From the IMG/VR virus record IMGVR_UViG_3300043256_000464: a stretch of 64,000 bases of DNA. One strand, given 5' to 3'. The notes beneath the pieces are model-generated. The model was given only the letters and a program-made list of their open reading frames with translations, searched no databases and was not told where the DNA came from. Position 1 is the stretch's first letter; the number at the start of each line of letters is the position of its first letter. The translations under genes and the position numbers were made by a program. Positions 2,920 to 63,883 of this stretch are shown piece by piece. This DNA is from an uncultured virus (IMG/VR IMGVR_UViG_3300043256_000464) (taxonomy: Duplodnaviria; Heunggongvirae; Uroviricota; Caudoviricetes).

Positions 2920-3383
2920 CCGGCCACCTCGAAAGAGCCCCAATCAAACGGAACGGGAAAGTCATTTGGATGGACACGCTCGATTTCATCTGGGTCATGA
3001 GGAAGTGTGGCACAATTTGCTAAGATGGCTTGGTCAAACTCTGAATTGATTGGTATTCTGAATCCATTCCATACTTGTGGCGGAATTGTCAGAAGATGAT
3101 AATCTTGCACTGCGTCCATAAGATAGATCTCTTGCTGATTAAACGTTAAACTCTCAGCCCGCAAATCAATTAGACCAACAATGATCTGGCCGAATACGCA
3201 TGCATAGTTCAAGGTCATCTTTTTGTGGATATGCCAAGCTTTGACAACTTCGGCCCGTATCGTTGAAAAATAGATCTCACCAAACTCTTCAAAATGATCA
3301 TCTGTGCGCTTGAGCATATGCATGACGCTGCCGCGTTCGTCTGGAAAGACCTTTAATGGCCTGAAGCTAACGCCCTCGATCAT
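2916..3383 (-). CDS. dTDP-4-dehydrorhamnose 3,5-epimerase-like cupin
   Basis: DERG, KAWHIH, LTIPPQVWNGF (RmlC-like). Confidence 0.85.
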   Translation of the reverse strand: MIEGVSFRPLKVFPDERGSVMHMLKRTDDHFEEFGEIYFSTIRAEVVKAWHIHKKMTLNYACVFGQIIVGLIDLRAESLTFNQQEIYLMDAVQDYHLLTIPPQVWNGFRIPINSEFDQAILANCATLPHDPDEIERVHPNDFPVPFDWGSFEVAG

Positions 3384-4399
3384 TTATCGATTCTCCACTT
3401 GACCCATTTGATTGTCTTTTTGAGTCCATCCGGGAAGTTGGTTCTCGGATGCCAACCCAAATGACTGGTGATAAGCCACGAGTTGAGCGTGAGTTCTTTT
3501 TCCTCTTCTTGAGCTCCGCCAAGTATTGAAAGGTCTGGCTCAATTCCCATTACAAGCCCAATGGCTTTAACTACCTCCAGAACATTCAAGACAGCAAACG
3601 GATCTGATACTGGCCACGCAACTCCCGAATCAAATCCATCTTTTAGATTCTGGGCTATTAGCAAATAAGCCTCAATAATGTCGTCAATGTAATTGAATTC
3701 GCGCCTATAGGTTCCGTCACTCCGGATGATTATCTTCTCACCCAGCAACATGGATCGGATTGTGCCTGGAACAATCCTCTGCCAATTCGAATCGTTGGGG
3801 CCATAGATGTTTCCGCATCGAACCACTGCGACTTTTTGTTCGTAGATTTCCGCGTAGGATCGAGCAATGAAATCAGCAGAGGCCTTGGAAACGTCATACG
3901 GATGAATTGGATTGAGAGGAGTCGATTCGTCGGCAGGTAAAGTCTCGATTCTCCCATACGCTTTATCACTAGATGCGACGACAACAGGAATTTTAGGGCC
4001 AGCTTGTTTCCTGACAGCTTCAAGTATATTGGCCGTTCCCATGATATTGGTTTCATAAGCCTGGAGCGGCATCCTGGTTGCATCGACCACTTGAGTTATC
4101 GCAGCAAGATGGAAAACCACATCTGGCTTGAATTCGGCCAAGGCACGTTCGACGGCTTTGTAGTCCCGAATGTCCTCCCAGATAGCGTCATCGATATAAG
4201 AAACTGCACGACCGAAGTGAAGACATGATCGATATTGATAGTCAATTCCATACACCCGTGCGCCCATATCATGCAAAATCTCGGCCATGCGACTGCCAAG
4301 AAAACCGGATATGCCTGTTATGAAAACGTTCAATCCCTTCCAGGGCCCAGCATTAAAACCCCGAGGAAGTTCCTTGCTTATTTTTCCCATCTTTTCCAT
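3380..4399 (-). CDS. rfbG: CDP-glucose 4,6-dehydratase-like SDR
   Basis: ITGISGFLGS, SSDKAY, YDVSKA, RCGNIYGP; adjacent to the rfbF-like gene. Confidence 0.75.
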   Translation of the reverse strand: MEKMGKISKELPRGFNAGPWKGLNVFITGISGFLGSRMAEILHDMGARVYGIDYQYRSCLHFGRAVSYIDDAIWEDIRDYKAVERALAEFKPDVVFHLAAITQVVDATRMPLQAYETNIMGTANILEAVRKQAGPKIPVVVASSDKAYGRIETLPADESTPLNPIHPYDVSKASADFIARSYAEIYEQKVAVVRCGNIYGPNDSNWQRIVPGTIRSMLLGEKIIIRSDGTYRREFNYIDDIIEAYLLIAQNLKDGFDSGVAWPVSDPFAVLNVLEVVKAIGLVMGIEPDLSILGGAQEEEKELTLNSWLITSHLGWHPRTNFPDGLKKTIKWVKWRIDK

Positions 4400-5229
4400 G
4401 GTGGAACCCCACTATCCCAAATCATTTGAAGTTGATGCATGTCTCGCCAGTTGTCTACCATTTGAAAATATCCGGGGTGCTGAAACGCACCGAGTCTGTG
4501 CTGAACGGCCAGAACGGGAAGGATATCATATTCGAAACTGCACTGGTCGCCAGGAATAATGTGGAGTATTCCCGGATCAACTACATAAAATCCGGCATTG
4601 ACCCAAGAGCCAGCCACTTGACCTTTTTCACCAAACTTCACCGCGTATCCACCTTCGATTTCCATGTTCCCAAATCTGGCTGGGGGGTTAGCAGCGCTCA
4701 GTGTCACTGCAGGGTTTTCAATCCGCACGGCAAGCTTTTGATGGAACTCAATGAGCGCGGCCAAGTTCACATCCGCAACTCCGTCACCATAAGTAAGCAT
4801 GAAGAAAGGATCGTCAGCCAAGTATTCTCTTAAACGTAGCAACCTTCCTCCGGTTTGGGTATCGACACCGGTATCGATCACCTTTACATCATCGGCCCAC
4901 TCTCCGAGGTCGGGATGGTTTTCAACCCATTCCTCGATGACTCCGCCAAGAAATCCAGCGGCAATGATGAACTCTCTGAATCCTTGTGAGGAATAGATCC
5001 GAATAATATGCTCCAGGAGCGGGATGCCTCCGACTTCTATCATGGGCTTGGGAATCAAACCCTTGGTCACATCCTGAAGGCGCGTCCCGCGCCCCCCAGC
5101 CCAAATCACCGTCTTGATCGGTTTGGGGCTTTCTGCAATTACCAGCTCCTCTTCGGGCAAATTGACCATCCTTACATTGCCCTCTGCATATCCAACCGAC
5201 ACTGGTCCTGTACTCGGATCTTTAGCCAT
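4378..5229 (-). CDS. rfbF: Glucose-1-phosphate cytidylyltransferase
   Basis: AGGRGTRL, PKPMIEVGG, TQTGGRL, LTYGDGVADV, PPWK. Confidence 0.85.
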   Translation of the reverse strand: MAKDPSTGPVSVGYAEGNVRMVNLPEEELVIAESPKPIKTVIWAGGRGTRLQDVTKGLIPKPMIEVGGIPLLEHIIRIYSSQGFREFIIAAGFLGGVIEEWVENHPDLGEWADDVKVIDTGVDTQTGGRLLRLREYLADDPFFMLTYGDGVADVNLAALIEFHQKLAVRIENPAVTLSAANPPARFGNMEIEGGYAVKFGEKGQVAGSWVNAGFYVVDPGILHIIPGDQCSFEYDILPVLAVQHRLGAFQHPGYFQMVDNWRDMHQLQMIWDSGVPPWKRWEK

Positions 5230-18058: not shown

Positions 18059-19021
18059 TTATGACTCCTTGGGCTCGTTCCAGTCAGACGGCTCTTCGTT
18101 AGAAATGCTCGCCCTGGTAAAAGCCGGTCGTCTTGTTAGTGCAAAATGAACGAGATGACCAGCTCGATAGATTTTCTCGCCCAAACCCTTTGAGCACATC
18201 TTGCATTGATCGATCATAGTTTTTCTAGTAAATTTCCCGTTCTCAAACCCTTCATGTTCGTGTGCCAGATCAAGAAATGCAATCGAGATGCGTGTTCTGA
18301 ATTCATGCGGAAGCTCGTCATCGATGTCACGTTTGACAGCTTCATAAGAAGCATTACCGATGGGTGTATCGCGAAAACTTCCACGGGCTTTGAACATGCC
18401 TCCATCTATGAAAACTTGCTCTGTATCACCCGCTATTCCAAATCCTTCTAGATCCAAATAATGGGCAATCCCCATATATGGGAGTCCGCCATTCCAAGCT
18501 TTGCTCGAAAACGGTGCAGGAACTTTATCCCTGTCCTTAACTCGTTTGATAAAGTCCTTGAAGAGTTCAACCGACATTCGTTCATCGTACAGATCTCTAT
18601 CTAGCCCGCTTGCGCTCGAAAACCAGCGCCTTACTCCGGTCTGTTCATCCTCAGAAACCCGAGAAATGTACATCTGCGCAACTGCTACAACTGGCACCAC
18701 TCTCCGCAATGGACCGGATACAGTGAGGCTACTTTCCGATTTCACTATTCCAGGTGTCCCTGCATTTCCAGAATTCAACTTGCCTCTCCCGTCTGGTTCG
18801 AATTCTCCGCAAACATCATCCGGCTGCACATTCGCTACATCTACTATTCGACACTTTCCTGCCTCGAAGAAAAAACAATCTCCGCATCTGTAGCCGCTGA
18901 TCCCGTCGCCTCTTTGGAAATTGGCCTCGGAGGGTTGGAGTTTGCGTTGTCGCCCTCCGATAGTTGTTTGCCCGGTACTTCCGCTGCCGCCCGTATTGCC
19001 ATGAGCTGCACGCTCTTTCAT
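18059..19021 (-). CDS. Prohead protease-like protein
   Basis: ASGLDRDLYDERMS, H, SIAF, HFALTRRPA resemble HK97-type prohead proteases; position fits. Confidence 0.55.
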   Translation of the reverse strand: MKERAAHGNTGGSGSTGQTTIGGRQRKLQPSEANFQRGDGISGYRCGDCFFFEAGKCRIVDVANVQPDDVCGEFEPDGRGKLNSGNAGTPGIVKSESSLTVSGPLRRVVPVVAVAQMYISRVSEDEQTGVRRWFSSASGLDRDLYDERMSVELFKDFIKRVKDRDKVPAPFSSKAWNGGLPYMGIAHYLDLEGFGIAGDTEQVFIDGGMFKARGSFRDTPIGNASYEAVKRDIDDELPHEFRTRISIAFLDLAHEHEGFENGKFTRKTMIDQCKMCSKGLGEKIYRAGHLVHFALTRRPAFTRASISNEEPSDWNEPKES

Positions 19022-19995
19022 ATCAATACTGGACCGCGAAACCTCACCTCGTCTGCAGGAATACGGATTGCCGTGGTCGTACCTTTCAACAATCCTCTGG
19101 AAAGAGCTCTGAAAACCCAGTGCTCAGGCTGTGTACCGGATAGGTCGGATTTGCGAGTCAAAATACCGGAAGTCATGAATGGCTCGCTCTTTTCGTTAAA
19201 TTTGACTTGGCCCCTCAAGATTACTTCGCCACCCTTGTTGGGGTTAGGAGACAAAACAAAATTATGCTTTTCTCTGTAGGCTTCAACCGCGACATGATAA
19301 GCTCGACTAATTCGTTTTTCCCTCACAACCATGGCTACTGTTCTGAACATGACCGGACGCTCTGACCACTCAAGCAGGTCCATCCCCTCCGGACAAGCAG
19401 CAGTCAAATTCCCATAACCCCTCTCGAGCAAAGCCTGCTCCTGCTCAACAGTCAGACCGTCTACAACAATGTCGCCTTTGCCATGGTTCATGGCTCTTGT
19501 GGAACGATTGACGACCAAATCGACCGTCTCGGTCTCGGGGGCTACCGGCTCTTCTTCAATGGCAGGTGCTCTTTCAGTCGTTTCTTCGCTCCGCAATACC
19601 CATTGCCCATTTTCGGCATTCTGCGCATAGCGCTCCTTGAGCGTAGCCCAAGCAGTGGATGATGCTTTAGCAATGTCTTTGGTTTCTATATACCCATTCT
19701 GAAATGCATCGATCCAAGTGAGCGCAGCAGAGAAAGGCGATTCAACTAAACTGCCGGGCAGTGGGATTCCATTAATCTCAATTCCAACATCGGCAAATGA
19801 CTTCTCAACCCAATCCCCTTCTTTGCCTTTGTGGAATTTGTTCTTCACTGCACTCCAAGCAATCTTAGCTGCACACGCATCGCGGTCCTCGCGTTTCTTG
19901 CATGTACTGTCATACGCGGAAGAAAACGCGCTACGATAAATATCCGCGGCATGTCCCTTGAGAACATCTGGAGCCGTTACCTTTTTTTCTGGCAT
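19018..19995 (-). CDS. ChaB-domain protein
   Basis: AADIYRSAFSSAY...AAKIAWSAVKNKFHKGKEGDW, plus a second partial copy AWATLKERYAQNAENGQW. Confidence 0.75.
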   Translation of the reverse strand: MPEKKVTAPDVLKGHAADIYRSAFSSAYDSTCKKREDRDACAAKIAWSAVKNKFHKGKEGDWVEKSFADVGIEINGIPLPGSLVESPFSAALTWIDAFQNGYIETKDIAKASSTAWATLKERYAQNAENGQWVLRSEETTERAPAIEEEPVAPETETVDLVVNRSTRAMNHGKGDIVVDGLTVEQEQALLERGYGNLTAACPEGMDLLEWSERPVMFRTVAMVVREKRISRAYHVAVEAYREKHNFVLSPNPNKGGEVILRGQVKFNEKSEPFMTSGILTRKSDLSGTQPEHWVFRALSRGLLKGTTTAIRIPADEVRFRGPVLI

Positions 19996-21338: not shown

Positions 21339-21367
21339 AGATTACATTGAAAGAGTGTCATTGTCAA
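21339..21367 (-). promoter_or_regulatory. Sigma70-like promoter facing the head-gene operon
   Basis: TTGACA-17 nt-TAATCT on the minus strand, just after the array terminator. Confidence 0.55.
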
Positions 21368-21369
21368 AT

Positions 21370-21400
21370 CAAAAAGCCCCGCTCGGGGCGGGGCTTTTTG
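21370..21400. terminator. Bidirectional intrinsic terminator ending the array transcript
   Basis: CAAAAAGCCCCGC-TCGGG-GCGGGGCTTTTTG. Confidence 0.85.
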
Positions 21401-21406
21401 CCAAAA

Positions 21407-22030
21407 GAGTCAGCATGCTCTTGATGGATTTCATTGGCCAGGTGGCCGACATTCTTCTGATGGGTCTCATAGTCTCAGTGGTCGGCATAGGCAAGCTGGG
21501 TTTCGTCAAGTACGTAGCCGACATCCATCGCCTGGGCTTCATTCATTTACTGGTCGGCATACACAGACTGGGTTTCATCCTTTTAGTGGCCGACATCTAC
21601 AGAGTGGGATACATTAGTCTCTTGGTCGGCATCTTCCGATTGGGTTTCATCACTTGTTTGGCCGACATGCCTATCCTGGGGTTTTCATTAGTGTTCTAGT
21701 CGGCATTACCTCGTTGGGTTCCATCCGTTCTATGGCCGACATTCAGTGGGTGGGCTTCATTTAAGGTGTGGTCGGCATATACCAGATGGGTTTTATCCTC
21801 CCCTTGGCCGACATCCTATGAATGGATTTCATTTGCCTCATGGTCGGCATAGTTGAGATGGGTTTCATAACTCTTGTGGCCGACATTCAAAGTCTGGATT
21901 CCATGATTTTCGTGGTCGGCATCTTGTACATGGGTTTCATTGTATCAATGGCCGACATTCGTTAAGTGGGCTTCATACTTCCCGTGGCCAGCATGGGAGT
22001 GGTGGGATTCATAATTAAGCTGGCCGACTA
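21407..22030 (-). repeat. TIGR-like dual-repeat array A, 17 units of 36 nt
   Basis: Plus-strand period TGGCCGACAT or TGGTCGGCAT-N8-TGGGTTTCAT-N8; on the minus strand CCA-9 nt-TGAAACCCA-9 nt-TG; 18 edge and 17 loop repeats counted; one unit is 38 nt. Confidence 0.9.
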
Positions 22031-22855
22031 AGCTACTTGCTCCAACTCGCGATCTTCATGCGATTTGGTAATAGGTAGCCCTTCAATCTCGCGCCATTCT
22101 AGCCATAAATCACGCAGCAGGGTTTTGGCCACTTTTCTCTTGGCCTTACGATGCTGGTGACTATCAGTTTCAAGTTCTTTCCATCTATACGAGGTAGGTA
22201 CGTTCTCGCCTTTCACGGCAGGGATTGGCTCTGGATACAGCTCGCGCATCCGTTCTCTATCTGCATAATATCCAGATGGTCCTGCGACATAGGCTGACTT
22301 CTGAGCCTTAATAAGGCTATCGGCAATGTTCCAGCAAAGAGCGCGGCCTTCGCGCGAGAAGTGATTCTTTTCTCCGCTAGAACTTCTTTCCATGCGTCCA
22401 TGGAGAGTGCCATTCGTTGACAGGTTGCCATCGATATCCATGACGGCCCCCATCAAATATCTCCATAGCTTCGAAACAGTATCAAAGCGACCAATGTCAT
22501 CGATCATTGCCAAAAGCTGAGCGGCTGTTGAATCTCCAATTCCATGAATTCCTACAAGCCATTCATAAATAGCCCCGAACTCTGAATTAGCCGCATCAAT
22601 CAAATCTTTCAGAGCTCTCTTTTCGAGCATGCGGATACCAACAGGACCTTGTTTGCCCTCGACAAGATCATCTAGAAAATGTAATTCCGCTGGCCCGTGG
22701 AGATTTGACTTCCCCTTCTCGATGGCATTCAAGCGTAGTTCATGCCTCAGGCGCATTTTCCTGAATTCTATGAAGAGGAGGTAGTGTTGCCAAGTGAGCT
22801 GGCGCTTTCGGGGCTTCGGATCGGGTCTAGCGTCTTTTTTGTTTTCGTCTGACAC
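22028..22855 (-). CDS. Nop/IS110-C-terminal-domain protein without nuclease (TasA-like), 275 aa
   Basis: IHGIGDSTAAQLLAMIDDIGRFDTVSKLWRY...HRKAKRKVAKTLLRDLW; no RuvC/DEDD; GTG start after AAAGGA; flanked by arrays. Confidence 0.8.
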   Translation of the reverse strand: MSDENKKDARPDPKPRKRQLTWQHYLLFIEFRKMRLRHELRLNAIEKGKSNLHGPAELHFLDDLVEGKQGPVGIRMLEKRALKDLIDAANSEFGAIYEWLVGIHGIGDSTAAQLLAMIDDIGRFDTVSKLWRYLMGAVMDIDGNLSTNGTLHGRMERSSSGEKNHFSREGRALCWNIADSLIKAQKSAYVAGPSGYYADRERMRELYPEPIPAVKGENVPTSYRWKELETDSHQHRKAKRKVAKTLLRDLWLEWREIEGLPITKSHEDRELEQVA

Positions 22856-22867
22856 TGCGTTTCCTTT

Positions 22868-23069
22868 CTGTCGCGACATCGTTTCGGTGGGTTTCATCAT
22901 CATCATGATCGCGACATCCAATCAATGGGTTTCATTTGTTTTTTAGTCGCGACATACCTTAACTGGGCTTCATTGTGTTCCTGGTCGCGACATTGGATAA
23001 TTGGGTTTCATTTCGAATATGGTCACGACATTCTTCAGATGGGTTTCATTGCTTACTTGGTCGCGACTC
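22868..23069 (-). repeat. TIGR-like array B, 5 units of 38 nt with palindromic edge repeat
   Basis: TGGTCGCGACAT-N8-TGGGTTTCAT-N8 repeated. Confidence 0.9.
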
Positions 23070-23071
23070 CA

Positions 23072-23761
23072 TCATTTTAATTTGAGGCCCGCTTTCTCAA
23101 TAAAATCGTCGCGGCCATTTAACCAAAGATCCATGGCTTTATCCATATTCTCTATGGCTCTGGGTGTGATCTTGGCTAGGCCGCTCTCGAGTGCGTTGAC
23201 AATGTGAAAAGCGTGCCATGCGATAGTCATACCAGAGTGGCTTTCGATAGCTTTTTGCTGTTTCTTTGTTACCTTCTTACCAGCAACACTATTAAGGCCG
23301 TTTTTGTTAGGGACAAGTTTTCCATTTCGCCCAAGCCCAAAACTAGCAAAGACATCCTCGACATCTGGCAATGGCATGATGATGATCTGCGAAATTTCTT
23401 CATCGGTCTTTCCAACCTCTCGCAATCTCGCCATGTTGCGCTTTTGATCATACGGATCGTATGGTCTTCCATTCCTTGAATTGTCGCCAATGGAAACAGC
23501 CAGACGCTCGGCATCATCCTCAAAATGCCGCCTCATAACAATCACTGTTCCGGAATGCTCTCGCAGATGTGCGAAATACCTATGCCAGCCGCCAATCAAG
23601 CGATTGTTCTGGCAGACCATCATGGGCGGAAGTTCTTGACCCATCCTTAAAGTATCTCGCATCCCTCGAACATGGGGATTAGAAACATCATTTCGGGGTT
23701 GCAACCAATCATCCAAGATGATGTCTAACAGGGGCATTTCAACTTGCTTATCTTGAGACAT
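23072..23761 (-). CDS. ParB/Srx-like N-terminal domain protein with HTH
   Basis: LQPR...LPPMMV...LIGGWHRYFA, NSRNG, then a helical HTH-like segment. Confidence 0.75.
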   Translation of the reverse strand: MSQDKQVEMPLLDIILDDWLQPRNDVSNPHVRGMRDTLRMGQELPPMMVCQNNRLIGGWHRYFAHLREHSGTVIVMRRHFEDDAERLAVSIGDNSRNGRPYDPYDQKRNMARLREVGKTDEEISQIIIMPLPDVEDVFASFGLGRNGKLVPNKNGLNSVAGKKVTKKQQKAIESHSGMTIAWHAFHIVNALESGLAKITPRAIENMDKAMDLWLNGRDDFIEKAGLKLK

Positions 23762-23781
23762 TTTTTTTGTTTCCTCTCATT

Positions 23782-23863
23782 AGACCCGCATTCAGCCAAT
23801 GGATTTCATACGAATGGTGGCGGGCATCTTGTGTGTGGTTTGCACTATCATTCTGGCCCAACA
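23782..23863 (-). repeat. TIGR-like array C1, 2 diverged units
   Basis: AGACCCGCAT-N8-TGGATTTCAT-N8-TGGCGGGCAT-N8-TGGTTTGCAC-N8-TGGCCC. Confidence 0.7.
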
Positions 23864-23900
23864 AAAGGGAATGATACTATACATTCTAATGTTCCACAAG

Positions 23901-24018
23901 CAGTCGGCATGTATTTATTGGATTTCATTCTTAGCATGGCCGACATCGAGGGTCTGGATTTCATCATTCGAATGGTCGGCATGGATTTTTTGGATTCCAT
24001 CATGCACTTGGCCGACAT
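23901..24018 (-). repeat. TIGR-like array C2, 3 units of 36 nt
   Basis: Alternating GTCGGC/GCCGAC edges with TGGATTTCAT loops. Confidence 0.85.
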
Positions 24019-24023
24019 CGACA

Positions 24024-24224
24024 CTAACTCAACCAACGCCAATAACCTCGCAGCCTCCGGAAGACATTGGAAAGCCAGCGCTTGGTCATCTGGCGCTTAT
24101 GCAATTTTTTACGATCAGACTCAATCCTATTGAAGGATCTTGTGATCTTGCGCTCAAGCTTGACTCGAGCCGTTGGATCGTTGAGAGGTCTTTTGTAGTT
24201 GGTCAACTGTCGTCTATGAACCAT
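24024..24224 (-). CDS. Small basic hypothetical protein
   Basis: ORF whose stop abuts array C2. Confidence 0.4.
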   Translation of the reverse strand: MVHRRQLTNYKRPLNDPTARVKLERKITRSFNRIESDRKKLHKRQMTKRWLSNVFRRLRGYWRWLS

Positions 24225-24443
24225 TCATTTTGCGCTTTCGTAGAAAAAATCAGATTCTCTACAAAGATGCAATTCTAGGAAAAAGCCTGATATGTATCGC
24301 GTCGCGATTCCATGGTGCGTTCGAATGATCTCTTGATGGTGTGTCAAGCCAACCCTGGTCGGAAGAATAGACCACTTGATATCTTTTCAGTTTGGCATAT
24401 AAGCTTCGGCCACGCGTCTTGCTAGTAAATCGAAGTCTTCGAA

Positions 24444-25583
24444 TCACCCACCGATACTCAGCGGCATGATGACGTGAACGTAATCATCGCGCCCAATCGC
24501 CCTAAACATGCCAGGGGATTTAGGACTCTTCGAATCAATCGATATGCTCCCGCTGCCAATAGCCTGCAGGAACTCGCTCAGCATCTTCAAGTTAAAGCCA
24601 ATCTCCATTCCGTCGCCCTCAACTGTCGCATCGACCACGCTCTCAGATGCTCCGATTTGACTATCTAAGGCCGTGACCGTAAGCGTTGCTGGAACCCCTT
24701 CCTCGCTCGAAGGTGATATCAAAAGCCGTCCGGAGTTGGCGGTTTCCTTCGCGATGATCAGTGCAGTCTTGCAGGCGTTTTTGAGAGCCTTGGCATCCAC
24801 AACTACACGGACTTCGTATTCGTCCACAAGAATGCTCTCTAGGTCCGGGTAGCTGCCTTCCAATAGGGCTGACTCAATATTGGCATCCTCGACTGTGAAG
24901 CCAACGCGCTTGGCATCGGCAGAGACCGAAAGCTTAACTGTCTCGTGGCCATCGATTATTTTCTTGACCTTTGCCATCGAGTTGGCTGGGACAACAAACG
25001 AAACTGGTTGCTCGGCTGCTTCGTTCATCTTCATCGTGCGCTTCGCAAGCCTAAACCCATCAGCCCCGGCGAATTCCGCATGATCACCTTCAAACGAAAA
25101 ACGCATGCCGGTCAATATAGGCCTGCCGACATCCTTAGATGCACAAAACAGAACTTCCTTAAGAACATCCTTGAATTCGGACACATTGAATTCCATTACT
25201 GCGCTTGTTTCGTTAATCAGATCCCGCATGGGATATTCTTCAATCGGCATGCACTTGATTTTCATCTTGTGACCAGCACACGAAACGTTGAGTGCATTGC
25301 CTTTCGATTCATAAGCCATTGAAACAATTTGATCTGGAAAAGTCGATATGAGCTCTGAAAGGGTTCCGGCAGGGACGGTTATCTGCCCCTCTTCTTTAAT
25401 CTTGGCGGCGTCTACCCAGCGAGTGATAGTGATCGACATGTCAGTACCGGATATTCTGAGTCTTCCATTCTCTGTTGACAGAACCATGTTCTTTAAAATA
25501 GGGAGGGTGCTTTTGGCCGGTACGATGTCGGCAACGTCTGCCAGTGCTGATTTGATTTCTGTTTGTGCAATTTGCAGCTTCAT
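24444..25583 (-). CDS. dnaN: DNA polymerase III beta sliding clamp
   Basis: KSTLPILKN, GTD, RPILTG, ADGFRLA, YPD, IGFN, VIMPL. Confidence 0.92.
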   Translation of the reverse strand: MKLQIAQTEIKSALADVADIVPAKSTLPILKNMVLSTENGRLRISGTDMSITITRWVDAAKIKEEGQITVPAGTLSELISTFPDQIVSMAYESKGNALNVSCAGHKMKIKCMPIEEYPMRDLINETSAVMEFNVSEFKDVLKEVLFCASKDVGRPILTGMRFSFEGDHAEFAGADGFRLAKRTMKMNEAAEQPVSFVVPANSMAKVKKIIDGHETVKLSVSADAKRVGFTVEDANIESALLEGSYPDLESILVDEYEVRVVVDAKALKNACKTALIIAKETANSGRLLISPSSEEGVPATLTVTALDSQIGASESVVDATVEGDGMEIGFNLKMLSEFLQAIGSGSISIDSKSPKSPGMFRAIGRDDYVHVIMPLSIGG

Positions 25584-26026: not shown

Positions 26027-26371
26027 TCAGGAATTTTCACCGTCAGTCTCCGTGAACCAGTCAGGGACTTCGGCTTTAGTTAGGGCTATGTTCAGACCAG
26101 CGATTGCATTGTATATTTGCTTATCAGTTGGTTTCTCGCCAAACTCTTTTCCCATCCAATAAGGCACCAGAATTTTGTCGGCCTGCTTTGCCGCTATTAC
26201 TACTTTCCGTAGGCCTTCAACGGTTCGCTTTAGACAATCGATCTGGCAGTTAGAGCAATCAGCGCCTTCGCCTAATTCGAGGCTGCAATTTTCACAGATG
26301 GTCAATCCATCGCTGTTATCTATGTGACTGTCAACTAAGATGCAATCAAATTCTTTCTGTGTTTCTATCAT
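26027..26371 (-). CDS. Hypothetical protein with Cys pairs
   Basis: CENC...CSNC. Confidence 0.45.
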   Translation of the reverse strand: MIETQKEFDCILVDSHIDNSDGLTICENCSLELGEGADCSNCQIDCLKRTVEGLRKVVIAAKQADKILVPYWMGKEFGEKPTDKQIYNAIAGLNIALTKAEVPDWFTETDGENS

Positions 26372-27591
26372 TCTTGTTTCTCTCCTTGAACAGCCAGAAG
26401 CTCTTGCTGCACGCGAGCCATACTCCAGCTATCGACTTCTGCCATCGACAGCAGATTTTCCCGACCGGTCCTGCCGTTTATGCCGAAACGCGCCATGCAC
26501 GTTTCTATTGCATCCTGATCTGGCATGTCTATCAGCCATCTACGATCCACTCGCCCCGGACGCAGGAAGTATTTGCTTATAGAATCGGGTTCGTTTGCAG
26601 TAAAAATAAGTAGGCGTCCCTCAGATGCCAGAGGCCCATCGATTGCATTGAGCAATCCCGATAGTGTTATCTCGGTTTTGTCGAGATCAACCTTCTCGAA
26701 ATCCTCGACGACCAGTAGACACTCATCCGGGGTCCTGCCCAAGGCTAATGCCAGTGAGTTATCCGTCATTTCCGGCTCTGTTAGCGAGAGCATGTAGATG
26801 GGAAGATTCAATTCAGTCGCAAGTACCTGAATGATGGTCGATTTCCCATTGCCAGGAGGCCCATGTAATAGATAGCCTCGACGATATGGTAGACCGCGGT
26901 CAAGATATCGATCCGGCTCATCTAGAAATCTTCGAGCATCTTCGTGGATTTCATCAAAGAGTCCTTGGCGCAGAAACAGCGAGTTGCTTGATCGTCGCGG
27001 GGAGAGGCGCACGCGCATCCACCAACCGGTCTTGTCGTTTACCCAGGTTACATTCTTGCCCTTATTCTCCTCATTTGCCATATCCACCGCACTGTTGACT
27101 AACTGGCGCAACGGTCCTCTTCCGGTACCAAGTGTTTTTATTGTGAGAACGCTAATCTTTCCCGCAACACCTTGATCTTCAAGAGCGTGGTCTAGCCAAT
27201 AGCGGATTCCATCTTCCTTAAATGAGTGCATACCGTGCCCAGGCATGATCACAGCCATCATGCCGTCAGATCCATGAACGGTGCGCGCATCGAGCCATTG
27301 GCAGGTCTGGCCGTATTCGGACTGGGCCATCCATACACCGATCCATCGGATCAGATCTTGATCTCGTGTTGTAATCGATACTGCCCACTTGCGCTGAATA
27401 AGATGCCAGACTAACTTGGGCGCGTAGCGAATCGCCCCTAGAACGGCTCCAATTAATGCTCCCATTACGGCGAGCGCCAACATGCCTCTAACGAACTCAC
27501 TGTCACCTAAGAATTGGTCAAGCATTATCCTGCTCCTCCAGCAGTGCCAGTACGTCGGGGCCAAGCCGCTTATGCTTTGCTGTCCACTCAA
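26368..27591 (-). CDS. BCS1-like AAA+ ATPase
   Basis: YRRGYLLHGPPGNGKS, TLSGLLNAIDG, LRPGRVD; true start probably near MLDQF. Confidence 0.85.
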   Translation of the reverse strand: MSGQQSISGLAPTYWHCWRSRIMLDQFLGDSEFVRGMLALAVMGALIGAVLGAIRYAPKLVWHLIQRKWAVSITTRDQDLIRWIGVWMAQSEYGQTCQWLDARTVHGSDGMMAVIMPGHGMHSFKEDGIRYWLDHALEDQGVAGKISVLTIKTLGTGRGPLRQLVNSAVDMANEENKGKNVTWVNDKTGWWMRVRLSPRRSSNSLFLRQGLFDEIHEDARRFLDEPDRYLDRGLPYRRGYLLHGPPGNGKSTIIQVLATELNLPIYMLSLTEPEMTDNSLALALGRTPDECLLVVEDFEKVDLDKTEITLSGLLNAIDGPLASEGRLLIFTANEPDSISKYFLRPGRVDRRWLIDMPDQDAIETCMARFGINGRTGRENLLSMAEVDSWSMARVQQELLAVQGEKQE

Positions 27592-31321: not shown

Positions 31322-32314
31322 CTATGGCCCGATGCCAAAATTCTCAATCATCATTGCCGTTTCGTTTTTTGGAGTACGCGTTGTTTTTATGTGCCACTGA
31401 TGAAGACCCATAAAGCCTTTTGAGCATATATCAACATAGCCCTTAATCCGTCGATAGTCCATGAGCCAATGATCAATCGTAGCATAACCCTTAAACACAG
31501 GCATGTCGCCCCAGATCGGGTCTGTGGCCGGTGCCGCGCCAACGAACCACCATGGAAAATGATCTAGCTCCAGCGCCATTGTATTAGTTATGAGCCCTCC
31601 GGCACTGATAAAAAAACCTCTGTCTCGCTCAATCTTTTCTATATTGTTGTGCCAGTCTACAGCGTCGATCTGCTCCATGGTCTTTGCGCTCAGGAAAAAT
31701 ATCTTTACGACGATCCACCTTCTGCCGCTCGACTCACCGTTGCCCATCTGGTACGAAAAATTATCTGCCCGCTCTCCGCTCGATGCCTCAAATATGAATC
31801 TCGCGGCCTTCGGCAACAGCATAATCTCTGGCTGCATGATCGCCCATATATCACCCTCGGCCATTGGCATGAGAGATTTCAAACCTTGAGTTGGACAAAC
31901 AGAGATTTCCGTTCGTGTCAGCCGCTTTGTTTTGAGTCTGAGATAAGGCCGAAACTTTTCAAACACCGATTCCAAATCTTGACTGCTGCCATTGTCACAT
32001 ACTAGAACCTCAAACTCGCGCCAGTCTTGCCGCGCCAAACACTCAAGAGAACGCGCTAGTTGATTTCGACGAAAATCGTTAATCGACATTAGAAGAGAGA
32101 GCTTGACTGGCAAGCTCTCATCTTTCAAGTCCAGGTCGTCTATCTTCAGAACTGGCTCTCCCTCATTCCAAATATCTGCCGCTATAGGCGGCGCGCGTTT
32201 CGCTTTGTTAGGAACCGTAGCGGGCGCATCAATCTCTTGGCTGGCCGCGATCTGTTGAGCCTGTTGAATGCGACGAACTCTTGCAGATTGCGGCGTCGAG
32301 TTTTCTTCGCTCAT
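31322..32314 (-). CDS. Glycosyltransferase family 2
   Basis: VLVCDNGSS, QPEIML, HQWH; similar to 1478-2218. Confidence 0.75.
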   Translation of the reverse strand: MSEENSTPQSARVRRIQQAQQIAASQEIDAPATVPNKAKRAPPIAADIWNEGEPVLKIDDLDLKDESLPVKLSLLMSINDFRRNQLARSLECLARQDWREFEVLVCDNGSSQDLESVFEKFRPYLRLKTKRLTRTEISVCPTQGLKSLMPMAEGDIWAIMQPEIMLLPKAARFIFEASSGERADNFSYQMGNGESSGRRWIVVKIFFLSAKTMEQIDAVDWHNNIEKIERDRGFFISAGGLITNTMALELDHFPWWFVGAAPATDPIWGDMPVFKGYATIDHWLMDYRRIKGYVDICSKGFMGLHQWHIKTTRTPKNETAMMIENFGIGP

Positions 32315-32362
32315 GCCTGAACATCCAATGATACTTTGCCAAAAATAGCCATGTCCATGCTA

Positions 32363-32926
32363 CTATTTTCTCCCTATCAAGAACATACCTTTGTCGTCCC
32401 AGTGTTCGGGCCGAGCGTCAAAGAATTCGGGCTTAATCAATACAGGTTCAACATCCTCGTAGCTAATTTTCTCTGGCTGGATTTTTTCACGACTGTAGTC
32501 GTGGATCAAGATGAAATCTCCCGGCCTGAGAACTTCGTGGTAACAATCAAGCTCTTTTGGCTTGTCGCCGCCGTCACAGAAAATAAGCGCCGGTGCCGGG
32601 CCATTCTTGATGTCCCGCTCGACCATTCCTTTTATTTTATGGTCGAAGCAGTCGCCGGAAAGTATCATCGCCCTTGGATGATTTGAGGCCATCTCTAGGA
32701 CGCTTTTCTCAGTCTGCCCAACGTCTATCTCGACTCCCAAGTATTTAAATTCGTGATCGTAAAGCGCCCTCGCCATTAACAGTGAGGCCAGCCCGCCCTT
32801 GAAGATACCGATCTCGACAAACATCCTGATTCGCTCTCGACGCAATAGATCGCAGATGTTGGCCAAGTGACTCCACATTAAGGCCGCCGGAATTCCCAAC
32901 GGATCACACACGAACGGAAGATTCAT
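32363..32926 (-). CDS. Methyltransferase-like, paralog 2
   Basis: FVEIGIFKGG...FCDGGDK...IHDY. Confidence 0.6.
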   Translation of the reverse strand: MNLPFVCDPLGIPAALMWSHLANICDLLRRERIRMFVEIGIFKGGLASLLMARALYDHEFKYLGVEIDVGQTEKSVLEMASNHPRAMILSGDCFDHKIKGMVERDIKNGPAPALIFCDGGDKPKELDCYHEVLRPGDFILIHDYSREKIQPEKISYEDVEPVLIKPEFFDARPEHWDDKGMFLIGRK

Positions 32927-34173: not shown

Positions 34174-37100
34174 TCATTTCCCTACTTCCATAATGTGATA
34201 GTCTGGTCTTCCGTGCAATTCATAATTCCAATTCGCTGGAGCCTCATCCTCATCAAATGAATACTGCTCCGTTGTCTTGAAGCCAATGCCTGAATAGTAC
34301 GCTGGCAAAAACGGACCAAAGGCCTCCGCGTAATTCACTTCATTTTCCCTTACGCTCTGCTCTATCATCTTAAGAACAGTGCCTTTTGGGGCTCCATCGT
34401 TAAATGCAGCAGTGGCTTCTATTCTACCATCGCCGTGATCCAACACAGCTAGTCCGGATTTGCCATCTTCGCTAAGATACAAAGCTTCCATATCAGCTAA
34501 TTCTTTTTCGCTATAGTGCGTGACGAAGGCGGCCCGTTTGTTGTCCTCCATAGCATTTGTGAAAGCCTGGTTGAATTCATCCGCAGTCGCTTGGACACCT
34601 GGGCTTTTACTCGCTTCGGGTTTTGTTTCGGCTGCTCCCGTATGAGAATATCCAGCTTGTGATCCTCCACGTTGGCCTTTTCTTCCCTCCTGTCCCTCAT
34701 GCCCCTCTCCGTGACGCTCGATTGCTCCATCAAGAATGCGTCCGACTGACACGGGATTTTCCCCAATTGGGAATGCAGGATCAATAATCTCAATTCCTTC
34801 TGGCCAGTTGTCTCGATACGCTTCTTCAGCGTTCACAACCAGCATTTCGCCAGCCCCTACGGGCAGCAACACAATAACTCGCCTATCATCGGAGGGCTTA
34901 TAAGTGAAGGCTCGGGAAATCTCCGGCGATTCCTCAATAGCCCGATCGACAGACCTACGCAAAGTCGCGAGGTCTTCTGTTTCTTGTTTATTAAACGTAC
35001 CCAAACCCCAACGATGGAATCTGGGAGCCTCGCCACTAACCTGAGTCACCATCGAGGAAAATAGATCGGCTACATATTCTCTGCGCAACCTAATTGTATC
35101 TTCTCCATAATGCTGACTTGCTGCAGAAATATATCTATCGCTTCCGATCATCTCACTATTCAAGTCCATTGTGATTTGAGGTACATCATTTGCGTCTCTT
35201 ATATCAGACAGAACATCGTTGTGAACCCAGTGTCCGAGTTCGTGATATGCGAGTTCTTTCCACTTAGAGCCGCCAACGCCCTTTTCTCCCTCCAATCTAT
35301 CGGTCATCCAGATCGTCTCGTTCTCATAGCTTCCCACCACACCAGAGCCAGCGCTACGATCTGCCAAATATGCAGCAAGCTCATAACGATTAAGCGCTGG
35401 ATAACGCTGGCCCTCTATGACAGCATCGGCCATGTCCAGATAGCTATTGGTGATCGTCAAACCGCGTGGTTTGATGCCAGTTTTCTCATAGAATTCCTTA
35501 AGTACCTCAATTGAAGAATTCCTAAACTCAACACCACGAGCCTTATCTTCCTCATCGAATTCTTCATCGAGCGCCAATTTTCGACCGAACTCAATCGTAT
35601 TGTCGTCTTCAGGATTCCAATCTCCATTCGCGCCATTTCCCGCATGGACTGATTGATCGGTACCTGTGCCTGGATGAGGACCAGGACCAAGGTGTTTCTC
35701 TATGATTTCCTCAGATTCCTCGGGTTCCGATTCTGTAATCAGCTCACCCAATTCTGTCATTCTCGGAGCAGTCGATACAACTAAACCCTTGTCGATATTA
35801 GATGTCCTCCATTCGTTTCGGCTGAGGCCGAGCAAGCGCATTGTGTCAACGCCATTGACTTGCTTTAAAGGGCGGGAAATAGGATCAAGTGAGGGGGGTA
35901 TGTCCTCAACTACAAATATCCTCAGGCCAACTAATTCATTGTCGCGTCCACTTGGTATTTCCACGCTAGCTCTTTGATCTACGCGAGTATCCATCATAGA
36001 TCGAAGTGTTTGTTTCTGCTCACTTGTAAATTCATCTGTTCCAGAAATAACAAAAGTCTCTTGGCCATACGCAAAAAATGTGTGGCGAATCAAACCAGAC
36101 TGAATAACCTGAGTCTCACTGATGGTGATATCGTCTGTATCAACCCCGCTTACTTCAGAAAGCGCGTGTTGACTGGTTTCCTCATGAACACTACCTTCGG
36201 CAAGAGTGCGGCCATCTGGCGCGATCCAAGCTGCATTCACGATATTTTCTGGTGGCGTCAATCCAAATTTCTTTTCGATAGCATCCGCATAAGATTTCGA
36301 CAACGCTTCATCGAATGGTTGCTTTTGCCATGTTTCAGAAGTCAATCCAATCTTGTCTGAATCGGCTTTATCTCCATCATGGGTATATCCTGGTTGAGAT
36401 CCACCCTGTTGCCCCAGTCGGCCTTCTTGACTTTTGTGACCCTCGCCATGCCTGAAAATAGACGAAAGCCTTGCAAAGAGTCCCCCTATTTCCTCACGAA
36501 TGCTTTTCTTGCCAATTACATCGCTTAGGAATTCCTGCTCCTGTCCTCGCAGCCTTCGCTCGCCGCGGGCACGCGCATCGCGCACCTTCTGATCTTCCGG
36601 ACTTATGAATTCAGGATTTTCGCGTGTTATCTTTCCTAGCCATTCCCTTGGCACACTGTCCCAGTCAATCAGCAAAGCAAAAGCACCGTCCTTTGGTTCC
36701 AAATCAATACCTTCTTTCTTAATGCCCTGGCCACCGATATCGACCTCATCTAGGTTTTCCCTTTCAACGAGCAGTTCCTTCCGGGCGCGCTCTGCCATGC
36801 TTTGCACTTGATCTGGCTTCCAGGCTGCAATGCGATTGTCCGAATCGATAATTGGATCGAACGCCTCAAAGAAATCTTTGGCCTCGTCAACAAAGCCAAG
36901 GTAAAGACCTTGGTTGCCAGTCTCGGCAATCTGGAAAGCTTCGGCCATCATCTGGGCCCCAAATCCTTTTCCAGATTCCTTAGCAACAAGATGCTGGAGC
37001 TCTAGCCAGTTATACCGTTCGATATCTTGATCTTCATCTTTGCTTTGGTCGTCATCTTTTCCGGGTCCTAAAATAGAATACTCGCCAGCTTCGTTGACAT

Positions 37101-40100
37101 CGGCTACGATAAACAAATAGGACGATTCATCCTCAACTCTCTCGATTGTTTTGATCAATTTGTCGTCTTTACGCTGATAGCCGCGGCGATAGACATCAAT
37201 CTTTACAATGGCCTCAGCAGGGATGCTTTGGCTAAACATCAATTCCCCAAATTCAGACACTTCTGGTTCGCTACCAGCTAGAGAACTATCAATTGTGATA
37301 AGTGCATAATTCTCTTCCGAACTCCGCGATGCGAAATGCAATGCATCTCTGCGATCTGAAGCGGCATAAACAACATCGGATACTCGGTTGTCTTCATCGG
37401 CAAAGTTTAGGAGCAATCCAGATTCCATAATGCTTTGGGCAGCTTTGGCTCCGGTTCCATGGAAGATCGATTCGGATGGTTTCTTTTCTGATCCTTTACC
37501 TGCGCCATTTCCACCATGCACTTCCTGACCCGTTCCTGTACCGGGATGCGTCGGCGCATAGTGACGCAAGATACCGCTCTTTTGTTCCTCAATAGAATTG
37601 ATCAATTCGTCAACTCTAGGAACCTTGGAGCGCGGTAGCATCCTGGCGAACGCAACGATTTCCCCGAGGTCGTTTAAAGCAAACCTGTGATCGTATCCAA
37701 CTAGGCCAGCGCTGGCCCTTTCGATATCCGCATCAATTCGCAAATCAACTTCATCTTCTGTTATGACCGGCAATCGCTTAAGCGCTACGTTCCGCATCAG
37801 ATCTTCGATTCCTTCGTTGCCGAAAGTGATCAGGGAGCTTTGTTCAATCGATAGATCTTGATAGGAATCGGGCTGTGCATAAAGCAAGTCAAGTGTTTCT
37901 TGAATTAACTCACCCTGCATCTGCATCCGTATCTCAGAGCGGTATTCTTCATCACCGCGCGTCTGTTCAAGCTTTTCAGGATCAGGCCACTGGAGAGCTT
38001 CGTTCAATAAATCGCTTCCCCCGCGCGGCCACTGGCTTAGGTCATCTGCGAGCTTTTGGGCATCCTGTTCGTTGGGTGTCTTGTTTATGTCGGAGAACGG
38101 CTCATGGTTTTCTTTGCCAAACAACTTCTTGGTTGGTTTGAAGCCGGTCTCTTGTCTTCTGCTCGAGCCTCCAGGATCAAGCCCGGCGATGTCAATATCT
38201 TGATCTTGCCCAGATTCTCCGGAAGCGAGTATCCCACGCTCGACAACCATCCCACCTTTCTCAATGACAGTCACCGGAGTTCCAGCTTTTTCGTATTCCT
38301 CTATTTCGTCTGGATCGATTCGGACTATCTCGCGGAACTCATCATCGCCTGCCATGGTTGGGAATGCGAATGCAACTACAACTTCTTTGGCGCGCTCGAT
38401 GTATGACTTTTCTATCTCAGATCCACTAAGCGCAGCAATGACTTTGGCTCTGTCGTCTCTATTGCGCTGAAGCATTGGGATATAACGGCTGGTATTTTTG
38501 ATGCCCATGGCATCAGTTCCAAGCACATATGAAGCCGTTAAATCAGCTACATATTCGCTCATTACCGATTCGCCTGTATAGCCCAGATCCTCAACAATGT
38601 GCCTGTAAATAACAGGGACTTCTATTCCTTCGTTGCCTGCTCCGATTATGCGCCTATGGGCCCAATGGCCCATTTCGTGAGTGATAACCCAGTCACCAGC
38701 ATCTTCATTTACCTTTTCCCACTTCTCTAGAGATTCATTGTTGATCCACAGCAAGTTGAAATCGTCGGCTTCGCCAGTTTCTCTATTACTCATGAAGCCC
38801 GCTACCTGTTCCTCCAAGATCGGGTTTACTTTCATCAATGCAGCTAATCTAGTGCTTGGACTGGTTTCAACTTCAGGAACTATGCCAGAAATAGAATCAA
38901 TAAAAGAATCGCCAGCATCTTCTATGTCGTCTGTGATGAGCATGAAGCTAGGAGCTATCCCGGTTTTTTCAGTGAAGTCATTAAAAAGCCCTCTGGTTTG
39001 TTTGAGTCTTTCCTTGTCGTCCATCCCCCATATGACTTTTCGCTGACCTGCTTCTGTTCGTCTGCGTCTAGCAGCTTGGCGTCTTCTAGATGTCTCTTCC
39101 TTAGATCCACCTACGTGATGAAATCCGGTTTGGCTTCCGCCTCTTTTGCCAGGACGACCATGCTGATCCTCGTGATCGCCATGTCTCAAAGCAAATGGGC
39201 CATCCTCTAAGCTGATCACCTTACGGAGTGGTCCGTAGACGATAGATTCGCCCCGCAGGAGCGTTGATAGCTGTTCTGTGGATAGAATGACGCCTTCGAA
39301 CACTTCCTCTTCGCTGGAGCGCTCTTTCAATGCCTCGCGAAGTCGCTTGATGATCGTCTTCAATGACTGCTTCTCTCCGATTTTTTTGGCTTGCTCCGAA
39401 TCGCCTTCGCCCATTTTCTTGGGAGCCTCGCCATCTAGGATCGCCCATACACGATTGATTTCATCTTTGGCATCCTCGCCCTCAGCCCAGATACAGAAAT
39501 GCTTGAAACAGAACCATGCTCGTGCCATTCCGTTGGCCCAATGAACATCCACTTCAGGAGGCTTTGAACAATCCATGCACTTCTTCCGACTATGCTTCGC
39601 TCGCTCTTCTAGCACAATCCCGCTCTCGACAAATACCCTATCGCCCATGCCTCGCGGAAGATGGACAGTAAATACCTTTTCAAATTCGTTGCGACCAACA
39701 ATGAAGAGATCCGCCGATATGTGAAATGGCTCGATTGTTGGCAACTGAGCAGGAACAGAATCAAGATCATATGCAACTGTGACGTGTGGTTTAAATACAG
39801 AAGGGGGTGAGAATTCGCTAACCGGCAAACCCTCAGCAACCGCTTGGTAATAAAGATCTGATTGAAGCCGAAGCAATGCAGGACCAGGATTCGCCAGCCA
39901 CACCAACGCAAGGGAGTCTCCCCCTTCCAACACCGCCAAGCTGGTTAATTCAATTAGCATCTGTATGGGCGGCATGAGGTTGGCCACCAAAGCAGCAATT
40001 GATTCAGTAGGGCAATTCTCAATATACAAAAGCGTCATATGAAACTTATCCGGTTTAACCGGCTTAAGCGTCATGTCGAGTTCTTCTAGTATCTTGGTTT

Positions 40101-40254
40101 GGAGACTTACAAGAGAATCGGGTCGGAATGGGATGTAAATAAAGCAAGCGTTGCCCGCGCGCTCAATTGCCAGATGCCCGCTTTTGGCAAGCCAATCGGT
40201 TGGACTAATGAAGTAGTCGGGGAACTGAACTTTTTTCTCCACACTAAAACTCAC
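34174..40254 (-). CDS. 2026-aa polyvalent head-associated protein (2H phosphoesterase, two HExxH peptidase-like, ART-like, GNAT-like)
   Basis: FHMTL/PHVTV; THEMGH and YHELGH; IFHGT..VYAAS; GKGFGAQMM; five His/Gly spacer motifs. Confidence 0.7.
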   Translation of the reverse strand: MSFSVEKKVQFPDYFISPTDWLAKSGHLAIERAGNACFIYIPFRPDSLVSLQTKILEELDMTLKPVKPDKFHMTLLYIENCPTESIAALVANLMPPIQMLIELTSLAVLEGGDSLALVWLANPGPALLRLQSDLYYQAVAEGLPVSEFSPPSVFKPHVTVAYDLDSVPAQLPTIEPFHISADLFIVGRNEFEKVFTVHLPRGMGDRVFVESGIVLEERAKHSRKKCMDCSKPPEVDVHWANGMARAWFCFKHFCIWAEGEDAKDEINRVWAILDGEAPKKMGEGDSEQAKKIGEKQSLKTIIKRLREALKERSSEEEVFEGVILSTEQLSTLLRGESIVYGPLRKVISLEDGPFALRHGDHEDQHGRPGKRGGSQTGFHHVGGSKEETSRRRQAARRRRTEAGQRKVIWGMDDKERLKQTRGLFNDFTEKTGIAPSFMLITDDIEDAGDSFIDSISGIVPEVETSPSTRLAALMKVNPILEEQVAGFMSNRETGEADDFNLLWINNESLEKWEKVNEDAGDWVITHEMGHWAHRRIIGAGNEGIEVPVIYRHIVEDLGYTGESVMSEYVADLTASYVLGTDAMGIKNTSRYIPMLQRNRDDRAKVIAALSGSEIEKSYIERAKEVVVAFAFPTMAGDDEFREIVRIDPDEIEEYEKAGTPVTVIEKGGMVVERGILASGESGQDQDIDIAGLDPGGSSRRQETGFKPTKKLFGKENHEPFSDINKTPNEQDAQKLADDLSQWPRGGSDLLNEALQWPDPEKLEQTRGDEEYRSEIRMQMQGELIQETLDLLYAQPDSYQDLSIEQSSLITFGNEGIEDLMRNVALKRLPVITEDEVDLRIDADIERASAGLVGYDHRFALNDLGEIVAFARMLPRSKVPRVDELINSIEEQKSGILRHYAPTHPGTGTGQEVHGGNGAGKGSEKKPSESIFHGTGAKAAQSIMESGLLLNFADEDNRVSDVVYAASDRRDALHFASRSSEENYALITIDSSLAGSEPEVSEFGELMFSQSIPAEAIVKIDVYRRGYQRKDDKLIKTIERVEDESSYLFIVADVNEAGEYSILGPGKDDDQSKDEDQDIERYNWLELQHLVAKESGKGFGAQMMAEAFQIAETGNQGLYLGFVDEAKDFFEAFDPIIDSDNRIAAWKPDQVQSMAERARKELLVERENLDEVDIGGQGIKKEGIDLEPKDGAFALLIDWDSVPREWLGKITRENPEFISPEDQKVRDARARGERRLRGQEQEFLSDVIGKKSIREEIGGLFARLSSIFRHGEGHKSQEGRLGQQGGSQPGYTHDGDKADSDKIGLTSETWQKQPFDEALSKSYADAIEKKFGLTPPENIVNAAWIAPDGRTLAEGSVHEETSQHALSEVSGVDTDDITISETQVIQSGLIRHTFFAYGQETFVISGTDEFTSEQKQTLRSMMDTRVDQRASVEIPSGRDNELVGLRIFVVEDIPPSLDPISRPLKQVNGVDTMRLLGLSRNEWRTSNIDKGLVVSTAPRMTELGELITESEPEESEEIIEKHLGPGPHPGTGTDQSVHAGNGANGDWNPEDDNTIEFGRKLALDEEFDEEDKARGVEFRNSSIEVLKEFYEKTGIKPRGLTITNSYLDMADAVIEGQRYPALNRYELAAYLADRSAGSGVVGSYENETIWMTDRLEGEKGVGGSKWKELAYHELGHWVHNDVLSDIRDANDVPQITMDLNSEMIGSDRYISAASQHYGEDTIRLRREYVADLFSSMVTQVSGEAPRFHRWGLGTFNKQETEDLATLRRSVDRAIEESPEISRAFTYKPSDDRRVIVLLPVGAGEMLVVNAEEAYRDNWPEGIEIIDPAFPIGENPVSVGRILDGAIERHGEGHEGQEGRKGQRGGSQAGYSHTGAAETKPEASKSPGVQATADEFNQAFTNAMEDNKRAAFVTHYSEKELADMEALYLSEDGKSGLAVLDHGDGRIEATAAFNDGAPKGTVLKMIEQSVRENEVNYAEAFGPFLPAYYSGIGFKTTEQYSFDEDEAPANWNYELHGRPDYHIMEVGK

Positions 40255-62715: not shown

Positions 62716-62727
62716 TTACGATGACAA

Positions 62728-62783
62728 GGGCGCGGCAGAGGAAGGCACGGGTAATCATTGGATCTATGGGTATTGCCGCGCCC
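62728..62783 (-). ncRNA. Single stem-loop tigRNA-like unit
   Basis: 10-bp stem GGGCGCGGCA/TGCCGCGCCC enclosing CCA-TAGATCCAA-TGATTACCCG-TGCCTTCCTC-TG. Confidence 0.65.
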
Positions 62784-63773: not shown

Positions 63774-63883
63774 GTATGTTCTCCAAATAAATGGGTGACT
63801 AAATACAATTGAGTTTAGCATTAATAAGGAAGTCCCACAACTACGGCGAAGACAGCCATGCCCTATATGGTACACTTTAACCT

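Follow-up and report, generated by a model that had tools for sequence, protein, structure and literature searches.

The DNA analysed here, a window of 64,000 nt from an uncultured virus, is a piece of a tailed-phage genome with PHROG matches to terminase, portal and major head proteins. Its minus strand carries a TIGR locus that runs from array C2 (23903 to 24016) through array C1 (23784 to 23861), a ParB-like gene in the tasParB position (23072 to 23761, 229 aa), array B (22870 to 23067) and tasA (22028 to 22855, 275 aa from a GTG start, within an open frame that begins at 22921) to array A (21409 to 22028), whose first edge is overlapped by the tasA stop codon. Directly after array A lies a terminator-like 13-bp inverted repeat flanked on either side by T runs (21370 to 21400). 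A ParB-like gene upstream of tasA on the same strand, with arrays around and between the two, is the layout of tasParB-tasA loci. The ParB-like protein matches PHROG 1033 (ParB-like, E 1.2e-8) and atlas clusters in which ParB_N is found in 30-60% of the members (score 0.98), with no match in Pfam. A comparison with Rfam gave no match. Three plus-strand open reading frames that cross the arrays (21355-21699, 23744-24133 and 23799-24278, the last without a Pfam match) were taken as by-products.

Several other features of the window are worth recording. A phage-encoded DNA polymerase III beta clamp lies just upstream of the TIGR locus (24444-25583), and the same strand encodes a ChaB-domain protein (19018-19995), a BCS1-like AAA ATPase (26368-27591) and a 2026-aa open reading frame without a PHROG match (34174-40254). 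The window also has sugar epimerase, glycosyltransferase and methyltransferase genes (3380-5229, 31322-32926 and, on the minus strand, 62802-63875). Near the far end, two stretches of the minus strand (61780-62715 and 62726-62781) cover an HNH domain and, after it, a region with weak likeness to Nop (PHROG 4285, E 1e-3); the matching atlas cluster has Transposase_20 in 65% of its members (score 0.91). An hhalign comparison with the TasA profile reached only 1.8%, a Tyr..His tail was not seen, and just upstream there is a 10-bp hairpin with box-like words (z -2.4). This may be a further system of the TasH kind that has a single stem-loop guide.

The 27 units of the four arrays, flanked by 31 edges, share one format, namely CCA, 9 nt, UG, an A-rich loop, CCA, 9 nt and UG, so that paired 9-nt spacers with CCA and UG boxes, the signature of a TIGR-Tas array, stand beside a Tas gene. 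The last letter of the 9-nt spacers is A in 53 of 54. Array A has 18 edges and 17 units (36 nt long in 16 cases and 38 nt in the other), array B six edges and five units of 38 nt, array C1 three edges and two units with a period of 36 nt, and array C2 four edges and three units of 36 nt. In array A, edges 1 and 3-17 are exactly GTCGGC or GCCGAC in alternation, and the GCCGAC type takes a variant form at edges 2 (GCTGGC) and 18 (GCTGAC). Over all 18 edges, core position 2 thereby alternates between T and C (P = 4.1e-5, given 9 T and 9 C). The four edges of C2 alternate between the same two hexamers, the edge of array B is the 8-nt palindrome GTCGCGAC, and in C1 the edge GCCCGC pairs with GCGGGT, preceded by a first edge TTGGGC at 23856-23861. 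Across all 27 pairs of neighbouring edges, pairing can extend through the entire core of 6 or 8 nt, with partners that fit at 171 of 172 positions (160 Watson-Crick, 11 G-U, one mismatch). This pairing pattern is real and well beyond chance.

These counts bear out the core of the original prediction, which had proposed the alternation in A and C2, the palindromic edges of B and the ability of each edge to pair with either neighbour. Other parts need revision. The span 21443..23863 assigned to the feature leaves out C2 and the end of array A. The pairing of CCCGC with GCGGG in C1 holds, and C1 has a second, upstream unit where a single one had been described. Degenerate copies are not confined to the termini, since edge 2 of array A and edges 2 and 5 of array B deviate internally. 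The loop repeat, described as near-constant, does have a single consensus in all arrays, but it is less constant than the edges and matches TGAAACCCA exactly in only 8 of 27 units. Within array A, 6 of the 9 odd units but 0 of the 8 even ones carry the canonical loop (p 0.009, post hoc). We found no trace of 72-nt duplication in the spacers (identity 4.9/16 at lag 2, 4.6 at lag 1 and 4.4 overall), and no junction of like units occurs in the window arrays.

The Nop protein encoded between arrays B and A matches TasR (9mty) with a phmmer E of 3.5e-17 and TasH with 2.3e-7. Its predicted structure (pLDDT 89.7) has a coiled coil with the Nop domain from residue 19, and the best 10 Foldseek matches are all TasR or TasH folds, with weak matches to IS621 and ISCro4. 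No RuvC or HNH domain was found, and Pfam shows only a Transposase_20 fragment; as a Nop protein without a nuclease domain it is therefore a TasA. The protein ends a few residues past its last helix and has no Tyr..His motif, unlike SpTasH and most of its relatives. Passages of two reports (PMC13421893; 10.64898/2026.09.09.750476) describe a Tyr/His dyad in a C-terminal loop as the processing site and its absence from stem-loop clades. As read from the translated sequence, the loss of this dyad in the TasA studied here is a new observation. A wedge motif is common to this TasA and two other dyad-less proteins. Separately, an FLxHLW word in the last helix (about 22100 in the window) carries His in dyad-bearing relatives and mostly Asp in dyad-less ones, with L041 and SpTasH as exceptions.

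To place the window arrays among relatives, locus and pattern scans were combined, giving 241 loci from which a parser recovered 137 distinct arrays in 97 sources, a count that includes five rows from the window itself and about nine 18-nt repeats that are probably not TIGR. In the great majority of relatives the edges are uniformly CGAG or one of the variants TGAG, TGAA and CAAG, and none of these arrays, judged by eye, alternates strictly. At least two overlapping stem pairs, sought in all loci, were found only in the window, with 20 such pairs whose arms overlap fully, and in L144; the metagenome locus L016 fell below the filter. A DNA pattern for exact alternation had no match in viral contigs and three in genomes, of which L144 was rejected as a coding repeat and L145 and L146 because array parsing yielded none; the sole match to a pattern for array-B-like or Q-type units, L252, was rejected as an ordinary linker-type array. 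Locus scans that took TasA or the ParB-like protein alone as query gave no further locus, the latter matching only itself, and when the three closest dyad-less proteins served as queries, 11 loci were recovered, none from their subgroup. The shared-arm alternating pattern is thus rare in the sampled loci. Two other arrays stand out: L029 (3928-4107), next to a TasA that bears the dyad, has two 6-nt edge cores among edges that are otherwise CGAG/TGAG, and L090 (2742-2885) has identical 36-nt units in tandem.

Stem length was compared with the state of the dyad in 48 loci of the close clade, leaving out L037, where no unit was found and where what follows the gene end looks like a tmRNA or tRNA end. 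The 37 motif-bearing loci, three of which have Phe or Trp in place of Tyr and two of which yielded no unit, gave 257 units with uniform CGAG edges, 249 with 2-bp and 8 with 1-bp stems. Nine of the ten loci classed as dyad-less, several of them close kin, have linker-separated stem-loop units (73 units, median stem 4 bp, range 1-13), and all 25 parsed units of the window have stems of 5-8 bp. L090, the tenth, keeps CGAG edges yet has a dyad-less TasA. Stem-loop arrays with a conserved loop and a dyad-less TasA within the dual-repeat clade were seen at L002 (2129-2550), L003, L008, L017, L018, L084 and L085, L008 being assigned its class by likeness to L084 as its frame leaves the contig before that region. 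L016, also dyad-less, combines linker-separated with shared-edge units.

In trees that leave out the tail, groups lacking the dyad are placed among dyad-bearing ones and the window TasA forms a long branch of uncertain placement; the 132-row protein tree is a quick tree. The trees are compatible with one loss of the dyad as well as with several (p-AU 0.557). The number of independent dyad-stem contrasts, one pair on well-supported branches and four on the best tree, is too small for a test, so the link between dyad and stem leans on the published, wider correlation.

The predicted energies distinguish the full helix from its halves. A full edge-to-edge helix is worth -6.8 kcal/mol in perfect units of A and C2 and -8.6 to -10.5 in B, as against -1.4 to +2.9 for half-edge stems, such that in the absence of protein the full helix is predicted to be stable and the half stem is not. 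Five folded window units had z values of -0.9 to -4.7. Adjacent full helices cannot coexist. With folding limited to 60 nt, odd units dominate (units 3, 5, 9, 11 and 13 of A at 0.78-0.98, units 1, 3 and 5 of B, and 1 and 3 of C2), and with unlimited folding the registers mix. Contigs of other strains come from two runs, X1 (possibly the source of the window) and X2 (with genes about 90% alike). In the parts of the contig tables compared, which are silent on RNA ends, these contigs show other spacers between edges that obey the pairing rule and a unit order unlike that of the window, along with a variant of array B in which two units are replaced by one and a new array B edge variant whose change is G-U-compatible. 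One joint in X2 (21744 to 21931, with the intervening letters unseen) could be a unit between like edges.

Complementarity alone decides nothing between a helix over the whole edge and one over its inner half, because alternation also leaves a perfect 3-bp stem after a cut at mid-edge. For the same reason the earlier proposal that cuts inside the hexamers would abolish the stem is faulty, since every guide would keep 3-4 bp. Three observations bear more directly on this choice. At the eight terminal edges of the window arrays, two of which adjoin either a stop codon or what is likely a ribosome site, the outer half, which would have no use if only inner halves paired, still pairs at 25 of 26 positions while the adjoining box letters are kept at 3 of 16 (Fisher p 2.8e-7). 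Terminal edges of CGAG relatives, once whole edges are set aside (17 leads and 14 tails, out of 76 each), keep their inner letters (57-59/59 and 58-59/62) and have mostly lost the outer ones, with the break at mid-edge. In ten chains from seven relatives that mix CGAG and TGAA edges, inner clashes number 2 against 7.5 expected (56 junctions, P 4e-4) and outer clashes 10, so that only the inner pair is protected there and both inner and outer pairs are protected in the window. Finally, full pairing with both neighbours along a chain is possible only with a palindrome or with a period of two, the solutions that are present; like units never adjoin here, and the spacers show no sign of duplication in 72-nt steps. 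Taken at the level of sequence, the terminal-edge, mixed-chain and chain-solution comparisons favour the whole helix. As an observation on the relatives themselves, the order of mixed CGAG/TGAA edges in L187, L159, L170, L183 and L186 avoids an A-C clash within each unit, which is within-array covariation for the known inner pair.

The strongest competitor, which we regard as possible and clearly less likely than the whole helix, is that the inner edge halves close each guide, by 3 bp in A and C or 4 bp in B, and that all units can be loaded simultaneously. Here the precursor would stay uncut or be cut at mid-edge by a host RNase or a Tas protein acting in trans, and alternation would be a frozen two-unit phase kept by gain and loss in 72-nt steps. 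Such an explanation accounts for the 3-4 end pairs left on every unit after a mid-edge cut and for a 36-nt period and 10-nt repeats like those that passages of PMC12045711 give for dual-repeat tasParB-tasA loci. It can also point to the 4-bp stems that suffice in L002 and L003 and to the parity of the canonical loops as a hint of the 72-nt phase. It leaves unexplained the kept outer halves of terminal edges beside lost box letters, needs a separate rule against like-unit junctions although single-unit duplication occurs in L090, and is at odds with spacers that bear no trace of 72-nt duplication. Moreover, the edge centre differs between arrays, so there is no conserved cut site, and half stems are predicted to be unstable alone.

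Two further explanations were considered. The original prediction had suggested that alternative foldings select odd or even guides; of this, the mutual exclusion of neighbouring full helices stands as a matter of geometry, and the regulated choice is unsupported. A regulated switch, in which transcription speed, the TasA level or the ParB-like protein picks one of two interleaved guide sets, seems to us improbable. The even number of edges in three of four arrays (18, 6 and 4), the preference of local folding for odd units and the loop parity all suit it, but boxes are kept equally in both sets, odd and even helices are equal in energy, and the favoured register shifts with the folding assumption; an even edge count by itself produces the odd bias. 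Less probable still is that complementarity is a by-product of unit insertion into DNA, through opposite-strand copying or a palindromic site, with no role in RNA. All arrays do obey a rule by which the next edge is the reverse complement of the last, and terminal copies stop exactly at the core. This origin would produce C>T and G>A changes alike, however, and among the 81 C and 83 G of the cores there are six C>T and no G>A (P about 0.015), with one A>G and one G>T besides; the changes mostly preserve G-U pairing, and the excess of C>T places the pairing in minus-strand RNA. Nor does a DNA-level origin explain the link with dyad loss.

Having weighed these alternatives, we consider it rather probable that the locus holds a zero-linker stem-loop array with fully shared arms, disguised as a dual-repeat array, which yields overlapping 42/46-nt guides whose neighbours are mutually exclusive. 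From this architecture we infer the following course of maturation. The locus would be transcribed on the minus strand up to the terminator, and TasA, its Tyr/His loop gone, would be unable to cut at mid-edge. Each unit would instead be defined by the full helix between its edges, 6 bp in A and C and 8 bp in B, as in stem-loop relatives. Every edge would do double duty, closing one unit as its 3' arm and opening the following unit as its 5' arm. For full pairing to run through a whole chain, the edges must either be palindromic (B) or alternate with a period of two (A, C2 and C1), which gives the three solutions observed. TasA dimers would protect closed units while host RNases trim their open neighbours, leaving overlapping guides of about 42 and 46 nt from at most every second unit of a transcript. 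Because boxes are kept no less in even than in odd units, both registers are probably used across the population of transcripts. Once loaded, the nuclease-free TasA would bind 18-bp DNA targets and probably repress or block them, perhaps together with the ParB-like protein. Passages of 10.64898/2026.09.09.750476 describe repression of transcription by nuclease-free Tas proteins, and by analogy the guides of this locus probably lead TasA to DNA of the host or of a competitor. Self-targets within the window were also sought and set aside as chance: four layouts gave 4, 4, 0 and 3 matches at 2-3 mismatches, against 2.6, 2.2, 0.7 and 1.4 for re-paired spacers.

The shared-arm reading has its counterpoints. 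Since the stems of L002 and L003 are only 4 bp, a half-edge stem of 3-4 bp may be enough, and a processing-competent Tas may act in trans from the roughly 54 kb of the 118-kb contig that lie outside the window. Making only half as many guides per transcript would clearly be costly. Near the window stems the CUU motif known from stem-loop clades is infrequent (3 of 23), as it is in dyad-less relatives (5 of 54). A more far-reaching version, in which a dyad-less dual-repeat system has been caught in transition, re-encoded as shared-arm hairpins with two exclusive guide sets that the phage controls through the folding register, strikes us as unlikely.

Comparison with described systems places the locus between two of them. 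With dual-repeat tasParB-tasA loci, as set out in passages of PMC12045711, it shares the order of the genes, the placement of arrays upstream of, between and downstream of them, 10-nt repeats, a 36-nt period (in A, C1 and C2, with a conserved loop), CCA and UG boxes, an A-rich loop and a solo Nop protein. In those loci mid-edge cuts yield 36-nt RNAs, and covariation supports two base pairs between the half edges; that edges pair is in itself known. Unlike them, the window has three systems of alternating or palindromic edges in place of one conserved direct repeat, pairs its edges over 6-8 bp rather than 2, keeps the whole core of its terminal edges where theirs end at mid-edge, has a 38-nt period in array B, and encodes a TasA that lacks the dyad.

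The stem-loop arrays of PlTasA, CsTasR, PateTasR and BlTasA, as presented in parts of PMC12045711, 10.64898/2026.09.09.750476 and 10.64898/2026.08.11.744272, resemble the window in units closed by stems of at least 5 bp, in a short dyad-less C-terminal region and in a conserved loop like that of the arrays their authors call intermediate; a passage of the first TIGR paper indeed proposes stem-loop arrays with a conserved loop as an intermediate. They differ in having linkers, whereas the window has none and its arms are fully shared, so that neighbours exclude each other. The window arms are moreover conserved along the array with a fixed period, the CUU motif is not typical of them, and the protein sits within a mostly dual-repeat clade. 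Among the relatives, L016, on a metagenome contig, resembles the window in its dyad-less TasA of the same clade and in a run of 37-nt units, where each 5-nt edge core can pair with the edge on either side at 3-5 of its 5 positions; it also has linker-separated units and lacks a strict two-state alternation. IS110 bridge RNA and the box C/D snoRNP share the Nop fold and the box C/D logic, and the window differs from them in lacking a recombinase domain and in its multi-unit arrays.

A single legend in the TIGRFinder preprint indicates that overlapping-stem arrays exist and are scored as having a linker of 0. Its rules would presumably assign arrays such as these to the dual-repeat type, or to the stem-loop type with every second unit lost. 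Alternating edges, neighbour exclusion and an analysis of overlapping stems were not found in the portions of the literature consulted, and the supplementary alignments of PMC12045711 may show such arrays. Alternating or palindromic edges beside a dyad-less TasA inside the dual-repeat clade make this a real and unusual variant.

These observations bear on how guides mature where the dyad is gone, on how dual-repeat arrays relate to stem-loop arrays and on how arrays gain units. The maturation models predict distinct RNA ends, with overlapping guides of 42/46 nt under the shared-arm model against abutting guides of 36/38 nt. Passages of the first TIGR paper describe dual-repeat systems and stem-loop ones as separate clades; the nesting of dyad-less stem-loop groups among dual-repeat ones, with proteins about 40% alike, points to a direction from dual-repeat to stem-loop. 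Finally, strict alternation is kept despite the turnover of spacers between strains, and this constrains any mechanism by which such arrays acquire units.
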